From assembly GCF_003334255.1 (NCBI RefSeq), contig NZ_QOWU01000070.1: a stretch of DNA of 19,728 bases, one strand, 5' to 3'. The notes under the pieces are model-generated. The model was not told where the DNA came from. It saw only the letters and a list, made by a program, of their open reading frames with translations, and ran no database searches. The translations under genes were made by a program, and so were the position numbers. Shown piece by piece: positions 545 to 18,375 of this stretch; the stretch's first letter is position 1, and every line of letters begins with the position of its first letter. The stretch comes from Escherichia coli. Lineage in GTDB: Bacteria > Pseudomonadota > Gammaproteobacteria > Enterobacterales > Enterobacteriaceae.

Positions 545-3256
545 CTACATTCCAGGTGATGGTGGCGTCCACTCATTATCCTGAACTGGAGTATAAGATG
601 TGTCATTCCCCCCGGATATGCTTTTCTGTTGCCTGATATATTCGTGGTAGTACTGTTCACTACGCTGACGATGTAAATCCACATCCGGGCGGCTGATTAC
701 AAAGTGTCCATTTCCGGTTATTCCAGCTGCATTATGCCAGGCCACCATTTCCGCAAATACATCATTAAACTGTTGATATGAGCCTTCCGGTTCAAAACCC
801 ATTCCAGGCTCACGATCAAACAATACAGGAGCAATCAGATTCAGCTTATCCACCAGTTCATTTCTGTCCTGATGATGGTAGAACACCACACGGTCCCCAT
901 AATCCACACAGACTAACTCGCCATTCCTCCGATCACGAAAACGCACACTGCCATCTTTCTGCAGACGGGCTTCGAGAACGCCAGTGTCTTCATAAAGTGG
1001 AGTTCCTCCCGGTTCACAGATAATCACGCAGCGGTCGGCATTCGTTGTTCGTCGCTTGTCTTTGCGACGATCACGATAATCCCAGCCACGTAACTGTGAT
1101 ACTGCAGCTCTGTCTCCCTGTACCGCCTGTTGCTCCACCCACTGCCGGTAGGACAAAGGATACCACTTACCCTCCGCAATCAGTGACAACCGCTCTTCCT
1201 TCACACTCTCCTTCAGCCTGATCAGCGCCTGCATACGCTGCACTTCCGCAATATGGTAATGCAGCTTACGCAATTGTGGATCCCGGAACTGCACGCGGAT
1301 ATACGCCTTGCGCCGACGGCAGGCAGCATGAATTTCCCGTAACCGTTCTCCGTAACGTAAGTCGGGTTTACGCCAGTGCTCCTTCCATGCAAGATAACGC
1401 GCGCGCAAATCTTCCCGCGCAGCTGCACGGGCTTCACGGCGTTCACGACGCAGTACAGGATCGCGCCGGAAGCCGGGCTCCACTTCATCGCTGGCAGCAA
1501 GTTCCGGATTGTAGCGACATTCAGGCTTCACCCGTTCAAATATATCTGCACCTGCGATCTCAAATGGCCCTGCCTGCGGCTCAGCCCTGGATAATGTCAA
1601 ATCCGGGTGGATACTGCTGGCCTTCACTGGTGTCAGCTCATGATTAAACGCATCCACAATCACAAGACCATGATGCTGTTTCTGCAACATAAGCCCTTTA
1701 CGCGCAAACATCTCATGGCACGCCTGCCAGCTGAAATTCCCGCCCGCGATCATATCTTCAATCAACGACTCACACTGAACAGTCGTGTACCCCCACAGAC
1801 TTTCCTTATCAGAAAACAGTTCGCGCTTTATTGCTCCCTGTGGACCTGTCCCCATCCGCATACGATACCATTCGTAATCACTGACAGCCCGGGTACCGGT
1901 ACTGTGCCCCCGGAATCGTTCTCCGGGGACGACCTGGGTAAAAATATCCTTCGGTACAGGCTGCCATCCGCCTTCCTGATCCTGCATGTAATCCAGCGTC
2001 ATTAACGGCCACACACTGTCTGCACGTACTGGTGTCTGTTGTTTATCAAATCCATCATGCAGTACCAGATGCCCGTGCTGGATCCCCATCCATAATCCAG
2101 CCTTTGCCAGAGTTCTGTGCACATCCAGGCAACTTTCCAGCTCACCATTTCTCGCCATTTCCGGTAAGCGTTCGGCAAAATGACGGCAGGCGTACTGTTT
2201 CAGACTCTCCGTTTCTGCCACTTTTTCCGGCCGGATATCAACGTTTATCGCTTCCGGATCATAACGACCGGGTGTCCCCACCTGACTGAAAATATCTGTC
2301 GGTACAGGCTGATATTCTCCCAGTTTCCGCCCCAGTCTTTCAGCCGTCCATGACGGGCCGAACGAACTGAGCACAACACCTTCCCGCGATCTGTCCCAGC
2401 CATCCTTCACCACCAGTTCTCCCTCCTGCATCGTGATATACAGACCATCACGGGCCAGCCGTTTATGCAAAGACAACCAGTCCTGGGCGGGTTCTTCACG
2501 CAGCCCGGCAATCGACATCTGCGCAATATATTCCCTGAAGGTCTGCTTTTTCCCGCGTCGCCAGGCATTACGGCGCTCACGTACCAGCGCTGTTTTACGC
2601 ACAATACGGTTGCCCGGTGCATGCACAAAACACCCGTTATCCGGTGCAAATCCGTGCTTAAGTTCAAGTTCACGGCATGCACGACTGAGTTTTTCCTTGC
2701 TCCACGGAAGGCAATTGATATAGCCGGTTTCAGGATGAACACGATTCACTGCAACATGTACATGCAGGTTATCGGTGTCTGTATGAACGGCAGCTACATA
2801 CTGATGTTTTGAAAGTTCAAGGGATTTCAGTGTGTGACGTACGCAGTCAAAAAGCTGCTCAGGACGCGGGCTTTCATGCGCAGGCCAGGAAAGAATGTAG
2901 TGAAAAACAGGGTCTGTATCATCTTTGGAAAAATGAGCAAGGTCTGCTGCTTTCTGCATTTCTTCAGCCGCAGATTCAAGAGACAAACAGTTATGAAAGC
3001 AGGTCACACCATAGAAATTCACCCACTGACTGCCGTCTTCCATTACATCAATCAGGGATACAAATTTTTCGTTACGCAGGCGTGTGGCATAGTCAACAAG
3101 CCGTCTGAAGCGGTTACGGTGCGGGACCTCACCTTTCATTTCCGGGTCTGGTTTGAGTTCATCATCCTGCACATCATCCCGCACAGACGTGTACGCAATC
3201 AGGTCTTCAAAGGAAGACCTTCCGTCACGTCTTTTGGGCGGAATGATAGCATTCAT
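545..3256 (-). CDS. nikB: MOBP-family conjugative relaxase (NikB-like), 903 aa
   Basis: Relaxase histidine motif HTDTDNLHVHVAVNRVHPETG (HxDxxxxHxH type). Size and N-terminus (MNAIIPPKRRDGRSSFEDL) fit my memory of IncI1 R64 NikB (~900 aa). Lies directly downstream of a nikA-like gene and oriT. Confidence 0.88.
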   Translation of the reverse strand: MNAIIPPKRRDGRSSFEDLIAYTSVRDDVQDDELKPDPEMKGEVPHRNRFRRLVDYATRLRNEKFVSLIDVMEDGSQWVNFYGVTCFHNCLSLESAAEEMQKAADLAHFSKDDTDPVFHYILSWPAHESPRPEQLFDCVRHTLKSLELSKHQYVAAVHTDTDNLHVHVAVNRVHPETGYINCLPWSKEKLSRACRELELKHGFAPDNGCFVHAPGNRIVRKTALVRERRNAWRRGKKQTFREYIAQMSIAGLREEPAQDWLSLHKRLARDGLYITMQEGELVVKDGWDRSREGVVLSSFGPSWTAERLGRKLGEYQPVPTDIFSQVGTPGRYDPEAINVDIRPEKVAETESLKQYACRHFAERLPEMARNGELESCLDVHRTLAKAGLWMGIQHGHLVLHDGFDKQQTPVRADSVWPLMTLDYMQDQEGGWQPVPKDIFTQVVPGERFRGHSTGTRAVSDYEWYRMRMGTGPQGAIKRELFSDKESLWGYTTVQCESLIEDMIAGGNFSWQACHEMFARKGLMLQKQHHGLVIVDAFNHELTPVKASSIHPDLTLSRAEPQAGPFEIAGADIFERVKPECRYNPELAASDEVEPGFRRDPVLRRERREARAAAREDLRARYLAWKEHWRKPDLRYGERLREIHAACRRRKAYIRVQFRDPQLRKLHYHIAEVQRMQALIRLKESVKEERLSLIAEGKWYPLSYRQWVEQQAVQGDRAAVSQLRGWDYRDRRKDKRRTTNADRCVIICEPGGTPLYEDTGVLEARLQKDGSVRFRDRRNGELVCVDYGDRVVFYHHQDRNELVDKLNLIAPVLFDREPGMGFEPEGSYQQFNDVFAEMVAWHNAAGITGNGHFVISRPDVDLHRQRSEQYYHEYIRQQKSISGGNDTSYTPVQDNEWTPPSPGM

Positions 3257-3267
3257 CAGCGACTGTC

Positions 3268-3600
3268 TCAGCGTCCCATTAAGTCTCTTCGCAGAGTGTT
3301 TGCAAGTTCTGTAATGGCAACGAGGACCTCTGCATACTCTTTATCTCCCGTGCGTTTTCCTTCCACAAACAGATGCTTCTGCAGGTGACCAAGACGCATC
3401 AACTCTTTCAAAAAATCTTCATCAATGCGGGCATTTATCTGTTTTCCCAGCACAGTTTTTCTTATCAGAGTTGAAACTGTCAGTCCGTTTTTTTCTGCCT
3501 TTTCTTTAACAATCTCAGCCTCTTCTGGTGAAAAACGAACAGCAATGAGGACATTCTTTTGCCGTTTCTCACTGCCATTTCGGTTTTTCTTCTCACTCAT
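3268..3600 (-). CDS. nikA: Relaxosome accessory protein NikA (ribbon-helix-helix oriT-binding), 110 aa
   Basis: 110-aa product starting MSEKKNRNGSEKRQ with SD AAGGAG 6 nt upstream of the ATG at 3598-3600; the longer 139-aa ORF in the track would overlap the oriT repeat. Small basic protein immediately upstream of the relaxase, the R64 nikA-nikB arrangement. Confidence 0.85.
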   Translation of the reverse strand: MSEKKNRNGSEKRQKNVLIAVRFSPEEAEIVKEKAEKNGLTVSTLIRKTVLGKQINARIDEDFLKELMRLGHLQKHLFVEGKRTGDKEYAEVLVAITELANTLRRDLMGR

Positions 3601-3641
3601 GGTCTGCTCCTTACCAGGGTGTCGGGGCAAAGCCCTGACCA

Positions 3642-3700
3642 GGTGGTAATCGTATAGCCGTGCGTGCGCGGTTATACGATTACACATCCTGTCCCGTTTT
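3642..3700 (+). other. oriT: oriT: inverted repeat (arms 3646-3656 / 3673-3683) followed by nick-core-like ACATCCTG TCCCG
   Basis: 11-bp inverted repeat GTAATCGTATA / TATACGATTAC, then 8 bp later ATCCTG (3686-3691) resembling the MOBP nic core (RP4 ATCCTG|C); sits between nikA and the leading region. Nick position 3691|3692 is inferred by analogy only. Confidence 0.6.
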
Positions 3701-3832
3701 TCAGGCCATTATAGCCTGTTATTTTTGTGCATCATAGTCTTATGCAGACGGCAGAGGCAGGGCGCAGCCCTGCCAGGAGGCAGTTTTTGGTGATAAAATC
3801 AGGCTTCAACATGAAACGGAGAGAAAGTGCCA

Positions 3833-4168
3833 ATGGCTTCTAAAAAATTTTACTCAGATGATGACATCCAGCTGGCAAAAGCTGCTTTATCGGAATTGCC
3901 GGACCTCACCGCTCAACGGAAAACATTGCGTGATTTTCTTGATGCCATTCGTGATGACATCATTGTCCTGGTAAGGACAAAGGGTTATACACTGACAGAT
4001 GTTCGTGACACGCTCAAAAATGCAGGGTATGAAGTAGGAGAGAAAGCACTTCGTGACATTATTCGGGAAGCAGAATCGAAAAAACCATCCCGCCGTTCTT
4101 CCTCTAAAACAGCACCTAAAAAGACAGATTCAGGCAGGAAAGATGGCATCGATATGAACAACAATTGA
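3833..4168 (+). CDS. Hypothetical small basic protein (possible DNA-binding), 111 aa
   Basis: ORF with ATG at 3833 preceded by GGAGAGAAA; C-terminal lysine/arginine/serine-rich tail; stop directly followed by the perfect palindrome GATGTGAC ga GTCACATC (4167-4185). Function not recognised. Confidence 0.6.
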   Translation: MASKKFYSDDDIQLAKAALSELPDLTAQRKTLRDFLDAIRDDIIVLVRTKGYTLTDVRDTLKNAGYEVGEKALRDIIREAESKKPSRRSSSKTAPKKTDSGRKDGIDMNNN

Positions 4169-4212
4169 TGTGACGATGTCACATCGTGTTCTGAGATTAT
4201 GATGATTACAGA

Positions 4213-4249
4213 AAAAAAAGCCCCGGCATAAATACCAGGGCTTTTCTGT
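4213..4249 (-). terminator. Rho-independent terminator for the minus-strand leading-region transcript
   Basis: On the minus strand: stem AAAGCCCTGG / CCGGGGCTTT with one mismatch, followed by a run of 8 T; located just after the stop of the 4254-5102 gene. Confidence 0.7.
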
Positions 4250-4253
4250 TTGA

Positions 4254-5102
4254 TCAGACTCGTGGCGGCAATGCACCAGGATAATGACGTGCAATAATAT
4301 CATTCAGTTTTTCAACAAGGTCAGGACACTTAAAGACAATATGTACGGTCCCTTTCTGGTAGCCACGCACCGTAAAATATTCCCCTTCAAACAACTCACC
4401 GATATTGTCGCCGTTCCCGAGATATTCACCATACTGCGCCCCGATGCTGTTCCTGAAGTCAGGAACGTTGCGTCCCTCCAGCAGATAAAACGGACGTACC
4501 AGGTCATCCAGTGCCTCCCGTCCGCTGCAGTCCAGCGTCACACGCCCGTTACTCCAGCGGTACAGCAGGTTTTCAATAATGATTTTCTTGCCCAGACGGC
4601 AGGGATTATTGGTTCTGTAATCCCATGACAATTTCCGGTAGACATCAATCAGTCCCTGTTCAAATGTCTGCATCTTGCTGGCATTCAGATGGCGAAAAGT
4701 TGCCAGTACATTGTCCAGGGTGATTTCAGGACAGGTGTCGCTCATCAGCTGGCTGTTCCACTCATCACGCTGGCATGAACTCATGAAGGTGTACATCCCC
4801 GTATCCGCCATCAGGCGGTCCCAGATTTTACGGTCGGCAAGACGGGTGATATTCTTTTTTGCTTCTTCCGGTTTATCCATGCATCGAACGGAGTCAGTCA
4901 CGCAGTCTTCAAACCCGTAGAGAAAAATGTCACCAGAAGCATCGAGCAGAATCCTGCGTGCTGTCGCCAGGCATTCCATCGCCTGCATGAACAGTGCAAT
5001 ACCTTCGTTACGCTGCGCGATAATGCGGTCGATGGCCACAGACGGAATAATATCTGTCGTGCCGGCAGTATTCAGGTCAGCAGTGGGTAAAGTCTGATTC
5101 AT
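4254..5102 (-). CDS. Hypothetical protein, first gene of the leading region (possibly DUF4942-like), 282 aa
   Basis: Long ORF; ATG at 5100-5102 with SD GAGGAG 8 nt upstream (the track start is a GTG one codon earlier). No methyltransferase, HExxH or nuclease motif seen by eye. The family assignment is from memory and weak. Confidence 0.75.
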   Translation of the reverse strand: MNQTLPTADLNTAGTTDIIPSVAIDRIIAQRNEGIALFMQAMECLATARRILLDASGDIFLYGFEDCVTDSVRCMDKPEEAKKNITRLADRKIWDRLMADTGMYTFMSSCQRDEWNSQLMSDTCPEITLDNVLATFRHLNASKMQTFEQGLIDVYRKLSWDYRTNNPCRLGKKIIIENLLYRWSNGRVTLDCSGREALDDLVRPFYLLEGRNVPDFRNSIGAQYGEYLGNGDNIGELFEGEYFTVRGYQKGTVHIVFKCPDLVEKLNDIIARHYPGALPPRV

Positions 5103-5152
5103 CACATTGTCTCCTCATCGTCACGACTGCCGGGTCAGCCAGGTCATTTCCC

Positions 5153-5463
5153 GGAGGAGCGAAGCTCCTTCTGCCGTCCGGGTCTTCGGGGATTTCCCCG
5201 CAGTGGACCTTTCCGACGGGGGACGCTCACCACGTCACGGGGCAGTTGTCCGGGGGCAGACGCAAAAGTTTTTGACGCCTGCGGCAAAAAGTTTTGTGGC
5301 TGGTACATCTCTCCCCTGGACGACTGAAACGGGATGTGGTCGTGTATGTACCCCCGGAAAGTCCGTCTGCGGAGAACAGGCCGCAGTGCGGCGGCAGACA
5401 GGCAGAGACAGCTGCGCCATCAGGCGCAGTGGCATTACACACCGTCAGGTGTGCAGGGAGCGC
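5153..5463 (+). promoter_or_regulatory. Structured GC-rich element resembling a single-stranded-DNA promoter (Frpo/ssi type), copy 1
   Basis: No credible coding despite many overlapping ORFs; dense hairpins (GGAGC gaa GCTCC, CGGGGAttTCCCCG, CTGCGCC atca GGCGCAG, CACACC gtca GGTGTG); contains TTGACG inside a hairpin; paralogous to 8317-8626. Confidence 0.6.
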
Positions 5464-6184: not shown

Positions 6185-7147
6185 TCAGTAAGTGATTTTC
6201 TTCAGTTCGTCATCGGAAAGTCCGGTAGCCTGCTTAATCTGCTCCGGCGTCATCCCCATTTTCTGAAGCTGGCACGCAATAGCCAGGGCTTTTTCAAGCG
6301 CTCCTTCCATGCGTCCTTCCATGCGTCCTTCCATGCGTCCTTCCATCCTGCCTTCCTGGCGACCTTTTTGCTCAAGACGTTCTGCGATAGTCATCAGTTT
6401 ATCCTCATGCTGCGGCAGACGCTCAGCCAGCGCCCGCATAAATTCCGGTGATACAGAGTCCCCTGCGTTAACGATGTAATGAATCAGAACACGCACCTGC
6501 TCGTCTGAAATTTCCACCATGACCTGCGGGAGTTTGTCCAGCAGCTCCATCATGTCACGATGGCGGATATGCTTCATCAGCAGCGTCAGTGCGGCCATCC
6601 GGCGATGGTTCATGATTTCATTGTCATCAACGACAGTGATATCAACCAGCGGAAACGGCTTTGTGTATATTTTAGCCGCAAGTGCCGGATTCTCAAAACA
6701 GTCCAGCCAGTTCATGCTGTACGGGTACGGGCTGCGCTCACCGTGATAGAACAGCACCGGAATCACCAGTGGCAACGTTTTGTGCTGCTCCAGATGTCTC
6801 TGCATCGCCGCCACACTGTAGCGTAACATGCGAAAAGGCATGTACAGATTTTCTGTGCTCTGGTGCTCGATGAGCGTATAAACATAGCCGTCTTCACCCC
6901 CGGTGGTTTTCACGCTCCAGAGGATATCGCTGGCGTACTGATGCAGGTCCGGCTCTACAAAGGTGGCGGGTTCCAGCTTCAGCGTGGACAGGTCGCACAA
7001 CTGCCGGTACTCCGCCGGAAGATGCAGTTCCAGAAAATCTCTGGCGACGTCGGGATTCGCCAGGAACGACCGGAACGCGGCATCATGCGGCGTGGGCGTT
7101 GTGGTGGTTTTCTTCTTACTCACTTTCCCTCCATGAGTTATTATCAC
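6185..7147 (-). CDS. Rpn-family (YhgA-like, PD-(D/E)XK) recombination-promoting nuclease with internal RpnS-like start
   Basis: N-terminus TPHDAAFRSFLANPDVARDFLELHLPAEYRQLCDLSTLKLE and the core ASDILWSV ... YVYTLIEHQS closely parallel E. coli RpnA as I recall it. C-terminal repeat linker and tail are present; an internal ATG at 6392-6394 with SD GAGGA would give a 69-aa C-terminal product. True start may be the GTG at 7121-7123 (SD GGAGGG). Confidence 0.8.
   Translation of the reverse strand: MIITHGGKVSKKKTTTTPTPHDAAFRSFLANPDVARDFLELHLPAEYRQLCDLSTLKLEPATFVEPDLHQYASDILWSVKTTGGEDGYVYTLIEHQSTENLYMPFRMLRYSVAAMQRHLEQHKTLPLVIPVLFYHGERSPYPYSMNWLDCFENPALAAKIYTKPFPLVDITVVDDNEIMNHRRMAALTLLMKHIRHRDMMELLDKLPQVMVEISDEQVRVLIHYIVNAGDSVSPEFMRALAERLPQHEDKLMTIAERLEQKGRQEGRMEGRMEGRMEGRMEGALEKALAIACQLQKMGMTPEQIKQATGLSDDELKKITY
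6302..6349 (-). repeat. In-frame 12-bp tandem repeat (3 perfect + 1 variant unit) encoding (EGRM)n in the Rpn linker
   Basis: Plus-strand unit TCCTTCCATGCG repeated head-to-tail; translates on the minus strand to RMEG repeats (QEGRMEGRMEGRMEGRMEG). Confidence 0.9.
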
Positions 7148-8316: not shown

Positions 8317-8626
8317 ACAGGAGCGAAGCTCCTTCTGCCGTCCACTTCTTCGGGGTTTCTCCCGCTGTGGACCTTTCCGATGGGGGCCCGTTTACCGCCT
8401 CACGGGACAGCTGTCCGGGGGCGGACGCAAAATTTTTAGCCGGGTTCATGGCTAAAAATTTTGTGGCCGGTGCATCTCACCCTGGACAGATGGAACGGGA
8501 GGGGGTTACGTCTGCCCCCCGGAAAGTCCACAGCGGGAAACAGGCCGCAGGGGTGGCGGCAGGAGGGAGGACTGCTGCGCCATCAGGCGCAGTTTCCTCA
8601 CACACCGTCAGGTGTGCAGGGAGCGC
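8317..8626 (+). promoter_or_regulatory. Structured GC-rich element resembling a single-stranded-DNA promoter (Frpo/ssi type), copy 2
   Basis: Shares blocks with copy 1 (GGAGCGAAGCTCCTTCTGCCGTCC, GTGGACCTTTCCGA, GTCCGGGGGC-GACGCAAAA, CCCGGAAAGTCC, CTGCGCCATCAGGCGCAGT, ACACACCGTCAGGTGTGCAGGGAGCGC). Contains a perfect 14-bp hairpin CAAAATTTTTAGCC / GGCTAAAAATTTTG (8428-8463). Confidence 0.6.
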
Positions 8627-9015
8627 AGGTCACGGCGCGACAGGGGCGGCGCGACCGGAACGGTCGCTGCAAGCCGGGTTTTCACGCATCGGACCGTAGC
8701 GGCAGCCCGAAACCGCGCCAGCGGGTTCGGCGGAGACTGGCGGGTGCGCCAGCAGCTGCCCGTCGGAGTCGGGCCTGACGACCGGATGCCGCCAGGCAGC
8801 CGGGAGCCGAAGTGGGCGCAATAAAAGACAGCCAGAAACGGTGACAGTGTCACGGAATATCACTCCTGTTCCCTGCATACAGCCATACACTACCTTCTGA
8901 CCGGAAAGCCGGGCCGGCAGCGCCGCAGGCGCTGCACCCCGCGTTTCCGGCAGGCGTCAGCCTGCCTGGGGTTTTCGCGCGGGCTGACAGGCGGCCTCCA
9001 CCGCCTGCCCCTGTA

Positions 9016-9207
9016 TCACCTGTTTCTGCTGCCCTGAAGGATGTAGTGACCGCCCAGGAAAACCGCCTGCTGATTCGCCACAAAATCGCAGATTTCATCA
9101 ACAATCTGCGCGGTGGTGAGCGGTTTCTGCCCCATTTCACGACGCCGCGCATTAATCACGGCCCTGTAATTACGCAGAATTTCGCGGGTTTCTGTGCTGA
9201 TATTCAT
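9016..9207 (-). CDS. Hypothetical small protein, 63 aa, translationally coupled to the upstream gene
   Basis: ATG overlaps the stop of the 9204-9626 gene (ATGA). Confidence 0.6.
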   Translation of the reverse strand: MNISTETREILRNYRAVINARRREMGQKPLTTAQIVDEICDFVANQQAVFLGGHYILQGSRNR

Positions 9208-13357: not shown

Positions 13358-14002
13358 ATGATTACTGTAGTTGGTGGGAACAAAGGTGGTTCAGGGAAAA
13401 CTACCATTGCATCAAACCTGGCTATTGCTCTCGCAAATAAAGGAAGGGAAGTCTGCCTGTTAAACGGAGATCTACAACGAACAGCCGCAAAACATCATGC
13501 GGAACGAGAAGCTGCAGGACTGTTACCAGCAATAACCCTTGTTGAGAAATTTGATAATCTGACACAAACACTACAGGCTCTGAATGAAAAGTTCGATGAT
13601 GTAATAGTGGATGTCGCAGGAAGAAACTCAAAGGAATTCATAACGAGTGGAGTTGTCGCACATCAAATAATTGCGCCACTACAGTGTTCTCAACCAGATC
13701 TGGATACTCTTACAGAACTAGAACAACAGATAGACGCAATGCGTAACCTTAACCCGGAACTTAAGGTTTATTGTTTACAAAGTATGGCAACAACCAATCC
13801 GGTTTTGAGGGGAAATGAGAGAAAAGAATTCCTTGAATATCTTGAAGAATTCCCAACAATTCAAGTCCTGGATTCAGTTATTTGTTTCAGAAAAGTCTAT
13901 CGCGATTGCATGAGCAACGGCACCGGTGTAGTAGAAACGAACAATACAGCAGCCAAAGCAGAAATTGAACATTTAATGAATGAGGTATTTGGCCCATGGT
14001 GA
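13358..14002 (+). CDS. ParA-family (small, ParF-like) partition ATPase, 214 aa
   Basis: Deviant Walker A VVGGNKGGSGKTT near the N-terminus; SD GAGG upstream of the ATG. Confidence 0.85.
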   Translation: MITVVGGNKGGSGKTTIASNLAIALANKGREVCLLNGDLQRTAAKHHAEREAAGLLPAITLVEKFDNLTQTLQALNEKFDDVIVDVAGRNSKEFITSGVVAHQIIAPLQCSQPDLDTLTELEQQIDAMRNLNPELKVYCLQSMATTNPVLRGNERKEFLEYLEEFPTIQVLDSVICFRKVYRDCMSNGTGVVETNNTAAKAEIEHLMNEVFGPW

Positions 14003-15185: not shown

Positions 15186-15599
15186 TCAGTGTTCACTCCA
15201 CGGGGAAACGTCGGGCAGGTTTTCCACAACACGGTACTTTCCCGGATAACGGAGCTGGTTACCGCCATGCGTCCGGACGGTGACAACAAAACCCCCTCCC
15301 TGGTTGTTTTCGGGGAGCAGGCGATCGCACTGCTCACTCAGCATGTGGATCACAAACGGCGCATCGCTGCCGTCTTCAAATACCAGTTCCAGCGCATCGC
15401 GGCCATTCAGCGTTCCCTTACTGATGATGACGTACTCAGCCCCCCGCATCTCCCTGAGTAAATGTTTTGCCGCATCCGGGACAAGCAGCCTGGCTGCGCC
15501 GGCATTCCAGCTGAGGTAGACATATCCGGCCTGCGCCTGTACAGACTGCCAGTAATCCGTTCTGGCGACAGCCTGACCTTCATTCTCAATAAAAAACAT
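15186..15599 (-). CDS. Hypothetical protein encoded directly upstream of, and co-transcribed with, the recombinase, 137 aa
   Basis: ATG at 15597-15599 with strong SD AAGGAG 7 nt upstream; stop adjacent to the recombinase start (TGATATG). Confidence 0.7.
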   Translation of the reverse strand: MFFIENEGQAVARTDYWQSVQAQAGYVYLSWNAGAARLLVPDAAKHLLREMRGAEYVIISKGTLNGRDALELVFEDGSDAPFVIHMLSEQCDRLLPENNQGGGFVVTVRTHGGNQLRYPGKYRVVENLPDVSPWSEH

Positions 15600-15682
15600 G
15601 GGTGACTCCTTTTTTCTTTTCCGGGCAGGGACGGTCATGCGATAACGTCATCCATCATCACTGCCCTTACCGTCACGCCGTC

Positions 15683-15929
15683 TGATAACATCATGCCGTT
15701 ATCATCATCACCATGATAACAAGCATCCATATAACCACGCCGTTAAATTACCGGAGAGCCGTTTCCGTCAGATCCGACTTTCCGGAATATCACAACTTTC
15801 CGGAAGTGTACCACGCTGAGAAAATAATCATATCGCTGTTTTCCGCCCCTGCGCGGCGCATCACAGGTCAGGGAGATGACACAACATATAGTGTCATCAG
15901 CAGCTGAATTCAGCACTACATATTGTGCT
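15683..15929. other. Cluster of inverted-repeat sites with 8-bp spacers; candidate recombination/resolution site for the adjacent tyrosine recombinase
   Basis: TGATAAC-ATCATGCC-GTTATCA (15683-15704); GATGACAC-AACATATA-GTGTCATC (15875-15898); AGCAC-TACATATT-GTGCT (15912-15929); plus the perfect palindrome GCTGAATTCAGC (15903-15914) and two TTTCCGGAA copies near 15779-15806. Confidence 0.4.
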
Positions 15930-16036
15930 GACAGGAGGTGGCGTTATGTGGGGGGAGAGGAAGATCCTGAACTGCCGGAAACCGGATCTGCGCGGCGGGG
16001 AACGGGCATGAAATATGATAATTAAGCAACATACAC

Positions 16037-16130
16037 AAAATCATATCAGATATGATTTTTATCATTTATGGTAAATCATATCTGATATTATAAGAATTCA
16101 ATAACCAATAAATCATATATAATATGATTT
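16037..16130. promoter_or_regulatory. Three operator-like palindromes AAATCATAT-N1-3-ATATGATTT upstream of the 16167 operon
   Basis: Perfect palindromes at 16037-16059 (11-bp arms) and 16110-16130 (9-bp arms); a degenerate copy at 16074-16090; all in an AT-rich stretch ending ~35 bp before the ATG at 16167. Confidence 0.55.
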
Positions 16131-16166
16131 TTACCTGTCAGAACATTATCAGATGGAGTGTGCAGG

Positions 16167-16424
16167 ATGGATGAAGAACGGGTGTTTTCACTCAGCTATG
16201 AACAACTGACCCGGTTTGCGGAACGACGCATCCGGGAATGCAATCTGGACAGCCAGGGCGCAATTTATCTCTGCGAGTCAGCCAAAGCCGGAGCCGTGCT
16301 GATCTTCTGGCATGAACTGGCCATAAATGGCTATGCCTCAATGAATGCCATAAAGAGACAGGAGCTCATTGACGCCGACTTTCAGCGCCTCAGAAAGCTC
16401 ATCTGGCCGGAGGATGACAGGTAA
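16167..16424 (+). CDS. Hypothetical protein, 85 aa, first gene of a two-gene operon
   Basis: ATG at 16167 with SD GGAGTG (the track begins at a GTG at 16158); stop overlaps the next start (TAATG). Confidence 0.6.
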   Translation: MDEERVFSLSYEQLTRFAERRIRECNLDSQGAIYLCESAKAGAVLIFWHELAINGYASMNAIKRQELIDADFQRLRKLIWPEDDR

Positions 16425-17014
16425 TGACCCAGAGCCGCCGACCGTCGCCACTGCAGCGGAGAGTGCTGATTGTGCTGGCTGCGCTTGATGAAAAACGGCC
16501 GGGCCCCGTGCTGACGCGGGACCTGGAACGGGTGCTGGAGCGAAGCGGGGAAGCCCCGGTCTACGGGCCAAACCTGCGCGCCTCCTGCCGTCGTCTGGAG
16601 GATGCCGGCTGGCTGCGTACCCTGCGCGCTCTAAACCTGCAGCTGGCAGTGGAGCTGACGGACGCCGGCCGGGCCGTGGCACAGCCTCTGCTGCTGGCAG
16701 AACAGGACCGCCTCCGGGAAGAACAGCGTGCGGCAGAAGTCGTCGTACTGCCGCTGGTCCCGGCAACAGGTCTGCCCGCAGACGGCACTTCTGCCACTGA
16801 TCTGGCGGTGGAGCTGAACGGCATGACGTATCAGGCCTGCCGTGGGGATTTTGTGGTGCGTCTCGACGGCAGCACCTGTCTGCAGTTATGGAATAAAGAA
16901 GGCAGAGTGGTACGCCGGGAGGGCGATCCACTGGAAGTGGCGCAGTGGCTGCAGGCCTGTCACGATGCAGGAATGGAGGTTCGTGTGCAGGTTAATGAAA
17001 GCACCAACCCGTAA
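16424..17014 (+). CDS. Hypothetical protein, 196 aa, conspicuously GC-rich relative to its neighbours, possible N-terminal HTH
   Basis: Codon third positions strongly G/C-biased in this frame (CTG, GCC, CGC), supporting plus-strand coding over the antisense ORF 16338-16931. N-terminal LQRRVLIVLAALDEKRPGPVLTRDLERVL resembles a DNA-binding helix pair. Confidence 0.6.
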   Translation: MTQSRRPSPLQRRVLIVLAALDEKRPGPVLTRDLERVLERSGEAPVYGPNLRASCRRLEDAGWLRTLRALNLQLAVELTDAGRAVAQPLLLAEQDRLREEQRAAEVVVLPLVPATGLPADGTSATDLAVELNGMTYQACRGDFVVRLDGSTCLQLWNKEGRVVRREGDPLEVAQWLQACHDAGMEVRVQVNESTNP

Positions 17015-17031
17015 AAACATGCCTGCACGGT

Positions 17032-17379
17032 TTACACATCATCCCATGGTGGCAGCCGGTTAACTTTCCTGCGCCACCAGTGGAGAGAGGCCATAAGCAG
17101 TCCGTACAAAAAACCATTCGTGATACTTATAATAATGGCCTCACCTGCTACCATTCCTGACGGCCCCCAGTAGATAAACCACATTGCACATCCCCAGGAA
17201 ATGCCCCATAAGCCCCCCGTCAGCACCGTGACCTGCCAGAACGGCATAAAGGGTAATGGCGGAAGCCGGATACCCAGCCGCCAGAGAATACGCAGAAGAG
17301 GAGGGGCATAATTGCTCCGCCACATCTTTTTGCTGTCCATCAGGGCAATGGCCCGTGCTTTTTTCTGCTCAAAGGTCAC
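17032..17379 (-). CDS. Small hydrophobic membrane protein, 115 aa
   Basis: GTG start with SD GGAGG 7 nt upstream; at least two hydrophobic, Trp/Gly-rich segments (VTVLTGGLWGISWGCAMWFIYWGPSGMVAGEAIIISITNGFLYGLLMASL). Confidence 0.6.
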   Translation of the reverse strand: MTFEQKKARAIALMDSKKMWRSNYAPPLLRILWRLGIRLPPLPFMPFWQVTVLTGGLWGISWGCAMWFIYWGPSGMVAGEAIIISITNGFLYGLLMASLHWWRRKVNRLPPWDDV

Positions 17380-17497
17380 AGGAGCACCTCCGTTCCATGA
17401 TGTAAACGTGACACAGCTTATTGTTATTGATTATTATTATCATGCTGTGATTATGTTGTCACGCACCGGTACACGATAACAATAAAGGAGAAACCAG

Positions 17498-17845
17498 ATG
17501 AAACTGGATATATCTGTAAAGTATTTACTGAAGAGCCTGATACCAAGCCTCATTATTCTTACAGTTTTTTATCTGGGATGGAAAGATAACCAGGAAAATG
17601 CAAGAATGTTTTATGCGTTCATCGGATGCATTATCAGTGCCATTACTTTTCCTTTTTCAATGAGGATAATACAGAAAATGGTAATAAGGTTTACAGGGAA
17701 AGAATTCTGGCAAAAAGACTTCTTTACAAATCCAGTTGGCGGAAGCTTAACTGCTATATTTGAATTATTCTGTTTCGTTATATCAGTTCCTGTGGTTGCC
17801 ATTTACTTAATTTTTATATTCTGCAAAGCCCTTTCAGGAAAATGA
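17498..17845 (+). CDS. Colicin immunity protein of the small E1/Ia/Ib type, 115 aa (likely colicin Ib-type)
   Basis: Strong SD AAAGGAG; small hydrophobic protein with three predicted membrane segments; convergent with and 18 bp from the end of a colicin pore-domain ORF, the classical pore-former colicin-immunity arrangement. Confidence 0.65.
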   Translation: MKLDISVKYLLKSLIPSLIILTVFYLGWKDNQENARMFYAFIGCIISAITFPFSMRIIQKMVIRFTGKEFWQKDFFTNPVGGSLTAIFELFCFVISVPVVAIYLIFIFCKALSGK

Positions 17846-17862
17846 AAGGGCATCATTATGTG

Positions 17863-18375
17863 TCAGATACCAATAAGTTTATTGACCTGCTCAATAAACT
17901 TATCATTAACAAGCGCACTCACAGCAGCCATAATAATTGCAAAACCCAGAATACCTACAGGGGTTCCCAGCATGACGGAAAACGTCCATGCTGTAACTGC
18001 TGAAGCAGCTCTTCCTGCTGCCAGTGATTCAAGTTTTACAAAAAATGGACGCCAGTTGTCCGTTTTTACAGCCTTTTGTAACTCCACAGCAACATCATAA
18101 CGATCAATAACTTTTCCGGTAAAACCAAATGCCTTACTGAACAGCTTAAAATTCTCCGCCATATGGACCTGATTAATAGCTTCCAGGGCTTTAGAAATGG
18201 CCATGCGATCTTGTATGCTATATTTCTTGTTCAGATTATTACGGAATTTATCAAAAGCGTTCAGTGCATCATCCACACTCTTAATTTGTTTCCCTTGAGA
18301 TACAGAAGCCAGCTCCTTAGAAAGTTCGGATGCTTGTTTACCCGAGTAGGCAGCCTGGCGGCTGCGGCTTGTCAT
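17863..18375 (-). pseudogene. Pore-forming colicin, C-terminal channel domain only (170 aa); N-terminal translocation and receptor domains absent
   Basis: TDNWRPFFVKLESLAAGRAASAVTAWTFSVMLGTPVGILGFAIIMAAVSALVNDKFIEQVNKLIGI matches the hydrophobic helical hairpin and C-terminal LIGI ending of channel-forming colicins as I recall them. An in-frame TAA three codons upstream of the first ATG shows the rest of the gene is missing. Confidence 0.7.

Follow-up and report, generated by a model that had tools for sequence, protein, structure and literature searches.

The plasmid gene pair ydfA-ydeA, a backbone element of many plasmids, among them resistance and virulence plasmids of the IncI and IncF types, probably regulates itself: YdeA, a winged-helix protein that belongs to an orphan family and probably dimerizes, would autorepress the ydfA-ydeA operon through three palindromes in its promoter region. 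We analysed this pair in a window of 19,728 nucleotides (the whole stretch of DNA under study) from an E. coli IncK2/Z (IncI-complex) plasmid of 81,965 bp, which shows 100% identity to pDETEC45 and about 99% to pECOED. Judged by sequence, the two genes in the window are ydfA (85 aa) and ydeA (196 aa), the same genes as those of R64, ColIb-P9, pS88, and pUA1135, with the names already given in the first three of these plasmids (PMC3438092 for pS88). The pCol1B9 and R64-type copies are 95–99% identical to the pair in the window, and loci of the R64/ColIb-P9 type share its neighbours as well, namely, cib/imm, ybaA/DUF6404, rfsF, and the integrase.

At least 5,000 PLSDB plasmids carry the pair according to tblastn, and among the matches listed, conjugative plasmids from Escherichia, Klebsiella, and Salmonella predominate. 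ydfA-ydeA is present in 2,071 of 5,426 complete E. coli genomes (38%), where nearly all copies (2,815 of 2,845) reside on plasmids. The YdeA family is narrow, with only 215 representatives at 50% identity in a search of 1.84 billion proteins, and YdfA forms 304 clusters at 90% identity. Every record that we examined tags both genes as ‘hypothetical protein’ or gives the bare names ydfA/YdeA; on IncI, IncK, and IncF plasmids they form a “conserved hypothetical” pair. The literature that we found treats them likewise, or mentions them as members of the ibfA transcript (PMC3438092, PMC12111858, PMC8004404), with the operator array, fold, and function absent from these three papers, and a literature search by accession number returned only proteomics listings. 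Homologues of the pair are expressed both as transcript and as protein: transcripts of both genes were measured for pS88 (PMC3438092), a YdfA homologue was detected as protein by riboproteogenomics in Salmonella SL1344 (PMC10117744), and homologues of both YdfA and YdeA are present in a Klebsiella proteome (PMC12470040). The locus represents an ordinary type of regulatory unit, with no new mechanism, and deserves attention mainly for being so widespread.

Both genes lie on the plus strand. The first, ydfA, extends from an ATG at 16167 to a TAA at 16424 (RefSeq WP_000343099.1) and is preceded by a Shine-Dalgarno sequence, GGAG, at 16155–16158; a GTG at 16158, called as the start by the ORF tool, overlaps this sequence and was rejected in favor of the ATG used by RefSeq. 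The second, ydeA, occupies 16424–17014, and its start overlaps the stop codon of ydfA (TAATG). A first-pass annotation of this DNA had proposed that the 85-aa and 196-aa genes are translationally coupled, and we found the overlap to be real, with a Shine-Dalgarno sequence for ydeA, GGAGGA, at 16409–16414. No intrinsic terminator is predicted after ydeA, and Rfam yielded no RNA family at 15500–17500.

The region upstream of ydfA (16000–16166) has a GC content of 26.9%, matching the AT-rich promoter region recognized on first reading, and contains three palindromes of the form AAATCATAY-N3-RTATGATTT. Searching for the core pattern ATCATATNNNATATGAT with up to two mismatches, we identified exactly three sites in the window, at 16040–16056, 16075–16091, and 16112–16128 (0, 1, and 0 mismatches, respectively), compared to a mean of 0.07 sites in shuffled sequences, where three were reached in none of 200 shuffles. 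A search of the whole plasmid detected no ATCATATNNNATATGAT-type site beyond these. Three dyads against an expectation of 0.07, unique on the plasmid, point to local autoregulation rather than to a regulon. The initial count of three palindromes therefore stands, whereas two details of the description differ: the arms are separated by 3 nt, not 1, and the right arm of the middle palindrome is imperfect (ATATTATAA). The complete putative operators, which are given no strand, are O1 (AAATCATATCAGATATGATTT, 16038–16058), a perfect 9/9 dyad alternatively readable as 11-nt arms with 1 nt between them, O2 (AAATCATATCTGATATTATAA, 16073–16093), and O3 (AAATCATATATAATATGATTT, 16110–16130), also a perfect dyad. 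Their centres are 35 and 37 bp apart, a spacing that would place O1–O3 out of helical phase, which makes cooperation between them harder to picture.

For eight diverged plasmids of the IncK, IncI, and IncF types, hosted by E. coli, Salmonella, Klebsiella, and Enterobacter, we aligned the 200 bp preceding ydfA. All three dyads are positionally kept throughout, and the 48 half-sites yield the consensus AAATCATAY, in which positions 3 and 6 never vary. In the same alignment, a ATATGATAAT element (16012–16022, plus strand) is identical in all eight plasmids and might be a solitary half-site of an operator or else serve as an alternative −10. A TATAAT within O3 is peculiar to the plasmid of the window, and a minus-strand promoter-like site at 16141–16112 is conserved in the IncI group only. 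In many IncF plasmids, an IS insertion has removed O1, O2, and half of O3, and along with these truncated operators ydeA carries a 27-aa in-frame deletion; the loss of the operators suggests that tight control is dispensable in these plasmids.

The right arm of O2 reads TG-A-TATTAT (TG at 16083–16084, TATTAT at 16086–16091), that is, an extended −10, and the equivalent arm in Klebsiella and Enterobacter reads TG-A-TATGAT. For pUA1135, BProm predicted a promoter with a transcription start 69 nt upstream of the ydfA ATG (PMC12111858). This predicted start maps to about 16098 in the window and agrees with the extended −10 in O2, and from these two indications we tentatively assign the ydfA promoter. 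A consensus promoter scan called no plus-strand promoter at ydfA because the −35 is poor, and start-site data for pCol1B9 are absent from the supplements of PMC6333337. Relative to the predicted start, O1 is centred at about −50, O2 at about −15, and O3 at about +22, in the 5’ untranslated region. The tight palindromic control envisaged in the first-pass annotation thus gains substance, in that operator-like sites overlap the predicted promoter at positions kept across the eight plasmids.

In the AlphaFold model of YdeA (pLDDT 86.9), a winged helix (residues 9–78, nt 16448–16657) is followed by a long helix (residues 80–104), a low-confidence linker, and a compact C-terminal β5-α-β domain (residues 127–190, nt 16802–16993) consisting of five strands, one helix, and one further strand. 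The modelled winged-helix fold with a dimerizing helix is that seen in MarR, PadR, and HxlR-type regulators, in agreement with the HTH-like character ascribed to the larger protein on first reading. By sequence, YdeA is an orphan: it has no Pfam domain at E ≤ 0.001 (the best matches being AbiEi_4 at 0.085 and PaaX at 0.25) and no NCBIfam match, and its best hit in PADLOC 2.0, JetA, reached an E value of 0.0095 over 49 residues of the winged helix. The only PHROGs match, phrog_19460 (E = 9e-8), covers residues 20–99, involves the winged helix only, and has no assigned function. A profile of the C-terminal domain matched nothing in Pfam, WYL included, and retrieved the YdeA family only, with no new domain architectures, from 5.8 billion proteins; Foldseek against AFDB50 likewise returned ‘YdeA protein’ entries alone for this domain, with whole-chain searches dominated by the winged helix. 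Some YdeA relatives are long forms with about 200 further orphan residues, for which nothing was found in Pfam or PADLOC, and PDB sequence searches with YdeA, the C-terminal domain profile, and the long-form extension gave nothing below E 0.3.

Across operator-bearing plasmids, the winged-helix domain of YdeA retains 83–99% identity, while, across the same operators, identity drops to as low as 35% for YdfA and 49% for the C-terminal domain of YdeA. Given that the operators are conserved together with the winged helix while YdfA diverges, YdeA is likely the reader of the palindromes. YdeA homologues at 28–47% identity (loci L012–L018 and L024) have no ydfA-like gene upstream. One homologue of 44% identity is encoded on a small Rep_3 plasmid, again with no ydfA, and both AAATCATA copies of this 4.3-kb contig lie, inverted, in the roughly 50 bp before its start; two copies anywhere on the contig occurred in 2 of 200 shuffles. 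This arrangement is suggestive of YdeA acting as the reader. The distant homologue L024 has no recognizable operator motif.

YdfA is modelled as a plain three-helix bundle (pLDDT 88.7) with no toxin-like fold, and it shows no NTPase motif or family match and no significant match in Pfam, NCBIfam, PADLOC, or PHROGs. In pETEC_73, ydfA is frameshifted and ydeA is intact, which fits a toxin and a simply dispensable gene equally well. Our guess is that YdfA is not a DNA binder and might be a protein partner that modulates YdeA, either as a co-repressor or as an antagonist.

From these sequence features, their conservation, and the protein folds, we infer binding of YdeA to the palindromes, repression, and any role of YdfA. 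In a YdeA dimer, each of the two recognition helices would read one of the two AAATCATAY half-sites that make up a palindrome. Occupation of O1, O2, and O3, at about −50, −15, and +22, would keep RNA polymerase off the extended −10 in O2, a layout suited to promoter occlusion, and by excluding the polymerase the operon would repress itself. Translational coupling would ensure that YdfA is made in a fixed ratio with YdeA. What emerges is a concrete model for this widespread locus, namely, a winged-helix autorepressor with a defined half-site, three operators, and a predicted promoter.

Overall GC content rises to 64.5% in ydeA, compared to 52.3% in ydfA and 50.6% in the window, so that the description of the second gene as strongly GC-rich was correct as far as it went. 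However, another stretch of the window, near 8481, reaches 67% GC, and the third-codon-position GC content of ydeA (68%) is like that of the integrase gene (67%), ydfA (62%), and the DUF6404 gene (60%). The excess is concentrated in codon position 1 (78% GC), reflecting how much Ala, Arg, Gly, Leu, and Val the protein contains. With third positions resembling those of the neighbours and joint inheritance of the pair in thousands of plasmids, we see no good evidence of recent foreign origin, which had been proposed from the GC content. An antisense open reading frame at 16338–16931 is a usual by-product of high GC.

The promoter region borders an inverted repeat, AGATCC(T)-N-CGGATCT, at 15962–15989 (no strand), which is conserved, contains two GATC sites, and is found upstream of ydfA in 13 of 13 loci examined, lying 49 bp from O1 in the window. 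Homology to ColIb-P9 breaks off inside this repeat, and the ColIb-P9 copy is located at the published rfsF coordinate (PMC8004404). By these comparisons, the repeat delimits the conserved ydfA promoter block on its upstream side and is probably an rfsF-type recombination core. In our reading, the cassette is a self-contained regulated promoter module beside this site, and its transcript runs on into variable cargo in other plasmids but ends after ydeA in the window. Because the promoter also drives phage-defence or Hha-type cargo in some plasmids and adjoins a recombination site used by IncI plasmids to exchange sets of genes, its control could explain how accessory modules are regulated.

As far as sequence comparison goes, the pair itself is autonomous: the flanking genes vary between plasmids. 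Upstream of it in the window are a 137-aa gene and the integrase gene, and elsewhere ccdAB, arsR, parDE, IS, or a TIR-like and a DUF4238 gene. Downstream, the window and the Col-type plasmids have nothing on the same strand after ydeA, with a convergent DUF6404 gene 18 bp away. In R64-type plasmids, ydeA is followed by ibfA and a ProQ-like gene, and RT-PCR links ydfA, ydeA, ibfA, and the ProQ-like gene (PMC12111858). In Enterobacter pE76_001 (L007), a DpdC-like gene (PADLOC E = 5e-42) and an SNase-type nuclease gene follow, and in this series of four the stop codon of each gene overlaps the next start. In Klebsiella and Leclercia, ydeA is followed by genes for a ‘DNA-binding protein’ and small uncharacterized proteins, one of them apparently membrane-spanning; in Klebsiella the next gene begins 31 bp past ydeA, and Hha/YmoA genes lie downstream in Klebsiella plasmids of this group. 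In ColIb-P9, a DUF4238 gene and ibfA (13,401–13,745) are on the far side of ydfA, a position that led us to reject the convergent DUF6404 gene as the ColIb-P9 ibfA. Genes for plasmid maintenance around the pair include ccdAB, ParM/ParA, and a resolvase. We found no ydfA-ydeA in pEC958 at 1–50,000 and 130,500–135,602, including the site beside ccdA, and the essential pEC958 gene EC958_A0140 was ruled out as ydeA, occurring in only 17 other plasmids.

A bolder proposition, which we regard as unlikely, is that YdfA-YdeA represents a new family of signal-responsive switches gating cargo that is swapped via rfsF, or else a new post-segregational killing module. If it were a switch, its sensor for plasmid entry or phage attack would be either YdfA or the orphan C-terminal domain of YdeA, with the conserved GATC pair by the operators offering one possible sensing route, and the promoter would thereby be released to express defence or H-NS/Hha ‘stealth’ cargo. 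Such a switch, if real, would be present in roughly one in three E. coli strains.

A rival reading, in which the pair is a BrxR- or CapW-like regulator of anti-phage or ‘stealth’ cargo, with the C-terminal domain of YdeA or YdfA registering infection or plasmid entry and lifting the repression of flanking genes, is in our judgment quite unlikely, and for the pair as a whole a defence-regulatory role is possible from context only. This context consists of the co-transcription with the defence gene ibfA in the R64-type plasmid, the TIR-like and DUF4238 pair divergent from the ydfA intergenic region in one locus (L008), where ColIb-P9 has DUF4238 and ibfA, and the DpdC-like and nuclease genes downstream in pE76_001. 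Complementation with the whole operon gave an EOP of 0.01 compared to 0.05 with ibfA alone, but deletion of ibfA gave an EOP of 0.94, and ibfA, for which a separate promoter is predicted, confers phage interference by itself (PMC12111858). This sufficiency implies that ydfA-ydeA is not the effector, and the fivefold difference in EOP cannot be assigned to the pair. Moreover, neither WYL nor another sensor domain was found by sequence in Pfam, the window and all Col-type plasmids have no downstream cargo, the cargo in Klebsiella is of the Hha/YmoA type rather than defence genes, and there are no further operators on the plasmid.

There is a slim chance that the pair is a type II toxin-antitoxin or post-segregational killing locus in reverse order, with YdfA as the toxin and YdeA as the DNA-binding, autorepressing antitoxin, as in HigBA, MqsRA, and HicAB. 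The first-pass annotation had likened the operon to toxin-antitoxin and abortive-infection modules, and a compact, translationally coupled plasmid pair under palindromic control among maintenance genes invites the comparison; YdeA, with an HTH and a second domain, could in principle neutralize a partner, and the asymmetry in pETEC_73 is as expected if YdfA were toxic. However, a single pseudogene equally suits an accessory gene, and a winged-helix protein with conserved promoter palindromes fits any autorepressor as well as an antitoxin. Profile searches of both proteins in Pfam, NCBIfam, PADLOC, and PDB sequences identified no defence or toxin family, the structure of YdfA is generic, and pairing is not obligatory, as illustrated by the distant YdeA homologues that occur without ydfA. 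In addition, promoter-truncated variants are common, and the operon often runs into further genes, which is unusual for such loci. Nothing that we found marks ydfA-ydeA as a toxin-antitoxin or phage-defence system, and the toxin-antitoxin and abortive-infection readings are not supported.

ArgR and PepA act as architectural accessory factors at cer. By analogy, the palindromes beside the rfsF core could serve multimer resolution, with YdeA shaping the synapse of the ResD-like recombinase, and both the position of the repeat close to O1, with its constant association with the ydfA promoter across the 13 loci, and the tyrosine recombinase gene that adjoins in IncI and IncK plasmids are compatible with this role. 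We nevertheless hold it to be highly improbable: many plasmids keep the repeat, the operators, and ydfA-ydeA with no recombinase nearby and with arsR, parDE, or IS upstream, the published rfsF site by the integrase in ColIb-P9 has no operator array, which is present only at the second copy, and the linkage is equally explained by homology blocks that end at a recombination site. A partition locus, with the palindromes as the centromere and YdeA as a centromere-binding protein like the winged-helix TubR, is scarcely credible because there is no NTPase gene (ParA, ParM, or TubZ), the sole partner being the 85-aa helical YdfA, and there are three repeats only on a plasmid that already has ParM/ParR-type and ParA-type loci.

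The autorepressor that we favor can be placed among several known systems. ydfA-ydeA resembles HigBA, MqsRA, and HicAB in gene order (small protein first, HTH protein second), coupling, promoter palindromes, and plasmid location, but differs from them by the lack of toxin or antitoxin homology, the non-obligatory pairing, and an operon that often comprises more than two genes. Compared with AbiE, the similarity to AbiEi_4 is only that at E 0.085, and the operon contains no gene for an AbiEii nucleotidyltransferase. As in BrxR and CapW, a winged helix with an added C-terminal domain is encoded at the head of an operon that includes defence genes in some plasmids; in contrast to these regulators, no WYL domain was detected in YdeA by sequence, and its cargo is not consistently defensive, with none in the window. 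In overall design, YdeA appears closest to small dimeric winged-helix repressors such as HxlR, PadR-s2, MarR, and F-93, although it matches no Pfam or NCBIfam model of these families, and it is set apart from them by the additional C-terminal β5-α-β domain found only in the YdeA family and, in enterobacterial plasmids, by the coupled gene for a small helical protein that precedes ydeA.

Many IncF plasmids carry an IS insertion in the ydfA promoter (comparison locus L003, 5560-6510; search matches H122-H125), and the right half of the O3 palindrome is the sole operator remainder in these plasmids. Their YdeA is 169 aa long, with 27 residues missing from the long helix and linker. In pETEC_73 (L011), ydfA is a frameshifted pseudogene (5080-5335) with ydeA intact, and the promoter is also cut by an IS66 insertion, upstream of O3. 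Long YdeA forms of 320-417 aa, with an additional orphan region at the C-terminal end, are encoded at four other loci (L006, 4389-5600; L007, 4407-5660; L020, 4001-5242; L021, 3983-4945).

In the window, the strand opposite ydeA contains an ORF of 197 codons (16338-16931, minus strand); it is annotated in no record and is best regarded as a side effect of high GC content. GC content in the window is highest at about 8481-9070 (67% over 591 bp), above the value for ydeA. Convergent with ydeA lies ybaA (17032-17379, minus strand), a DUF6404 gene for a 115-aa protein; 18 bp separate its end from the stop codon of ydeA, with no terminator predicted between the two genes. ybaA and the ibfA gene of ColIb-P9 are different genes. 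Farther downstream, a colicin Ia/Ib-type immunity gene (17498-17845, plus strand) adjoins a colicin ORF (17863-18375, minus strand). This colicin gene is a remnant, because the ORF encodes the pore-forming domain alone (170 aa), whereas the related plasmids L005 and L009 carry colicin genes of ~1.3 and ~1.9 kb in the same place.

The neighbors of the operon vary among plasmids. In L007, ydeA is followed by a DpdC-like/DUF6884 gene and then by an SNase-type nuclease gene, each overlapping the preceding stop; in L023, genes of the same two families, here separated by an acyltransferase gene, lie after a fragment of ydeA. The R64-type plasmid locus L008 carries a TIR-like nucleotide-binding gene and a DUF4238 gene (2534-4827) divergent from ydfA, sharing with it a 328-bp intergenic region that contains the ydfA operators.

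Upstream of ydfA, the inverted repeat AGATCC(G/T)-N13-14-CGGATCT was present in all 13 loci examined; in the window it occupies 15962-15989, 49 bp upstream of O1, and includes two GATC sites, and AGATCCGACTT also occurs at 15771-15781. Between the integrase operon and this repeat, a conserved block contains the palindrome GATGACAC-N8-GTGTCATC (15875-15898) and a 27-nt direct repeat (15880-15940; 70% identity, copies 34 bp apart). ColIb-P9 (L019) has two copies of the AGATCC-type inverted repeat, at about 6611-6638 and 3050-3078, which bracket a 3.5-kb segment encoding ColIb ibfA and a DUF4238 protein; one of the two repeats coincides with the published coordinate of the recombination site rfsF (PMC8004404). 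Because homology between the window and ColIb-P9 stops within this repeat, the window plasmid looks like the product of a site-specific deletion of a ColIb-P9-type defense segment (DUF4238 and ibfA).
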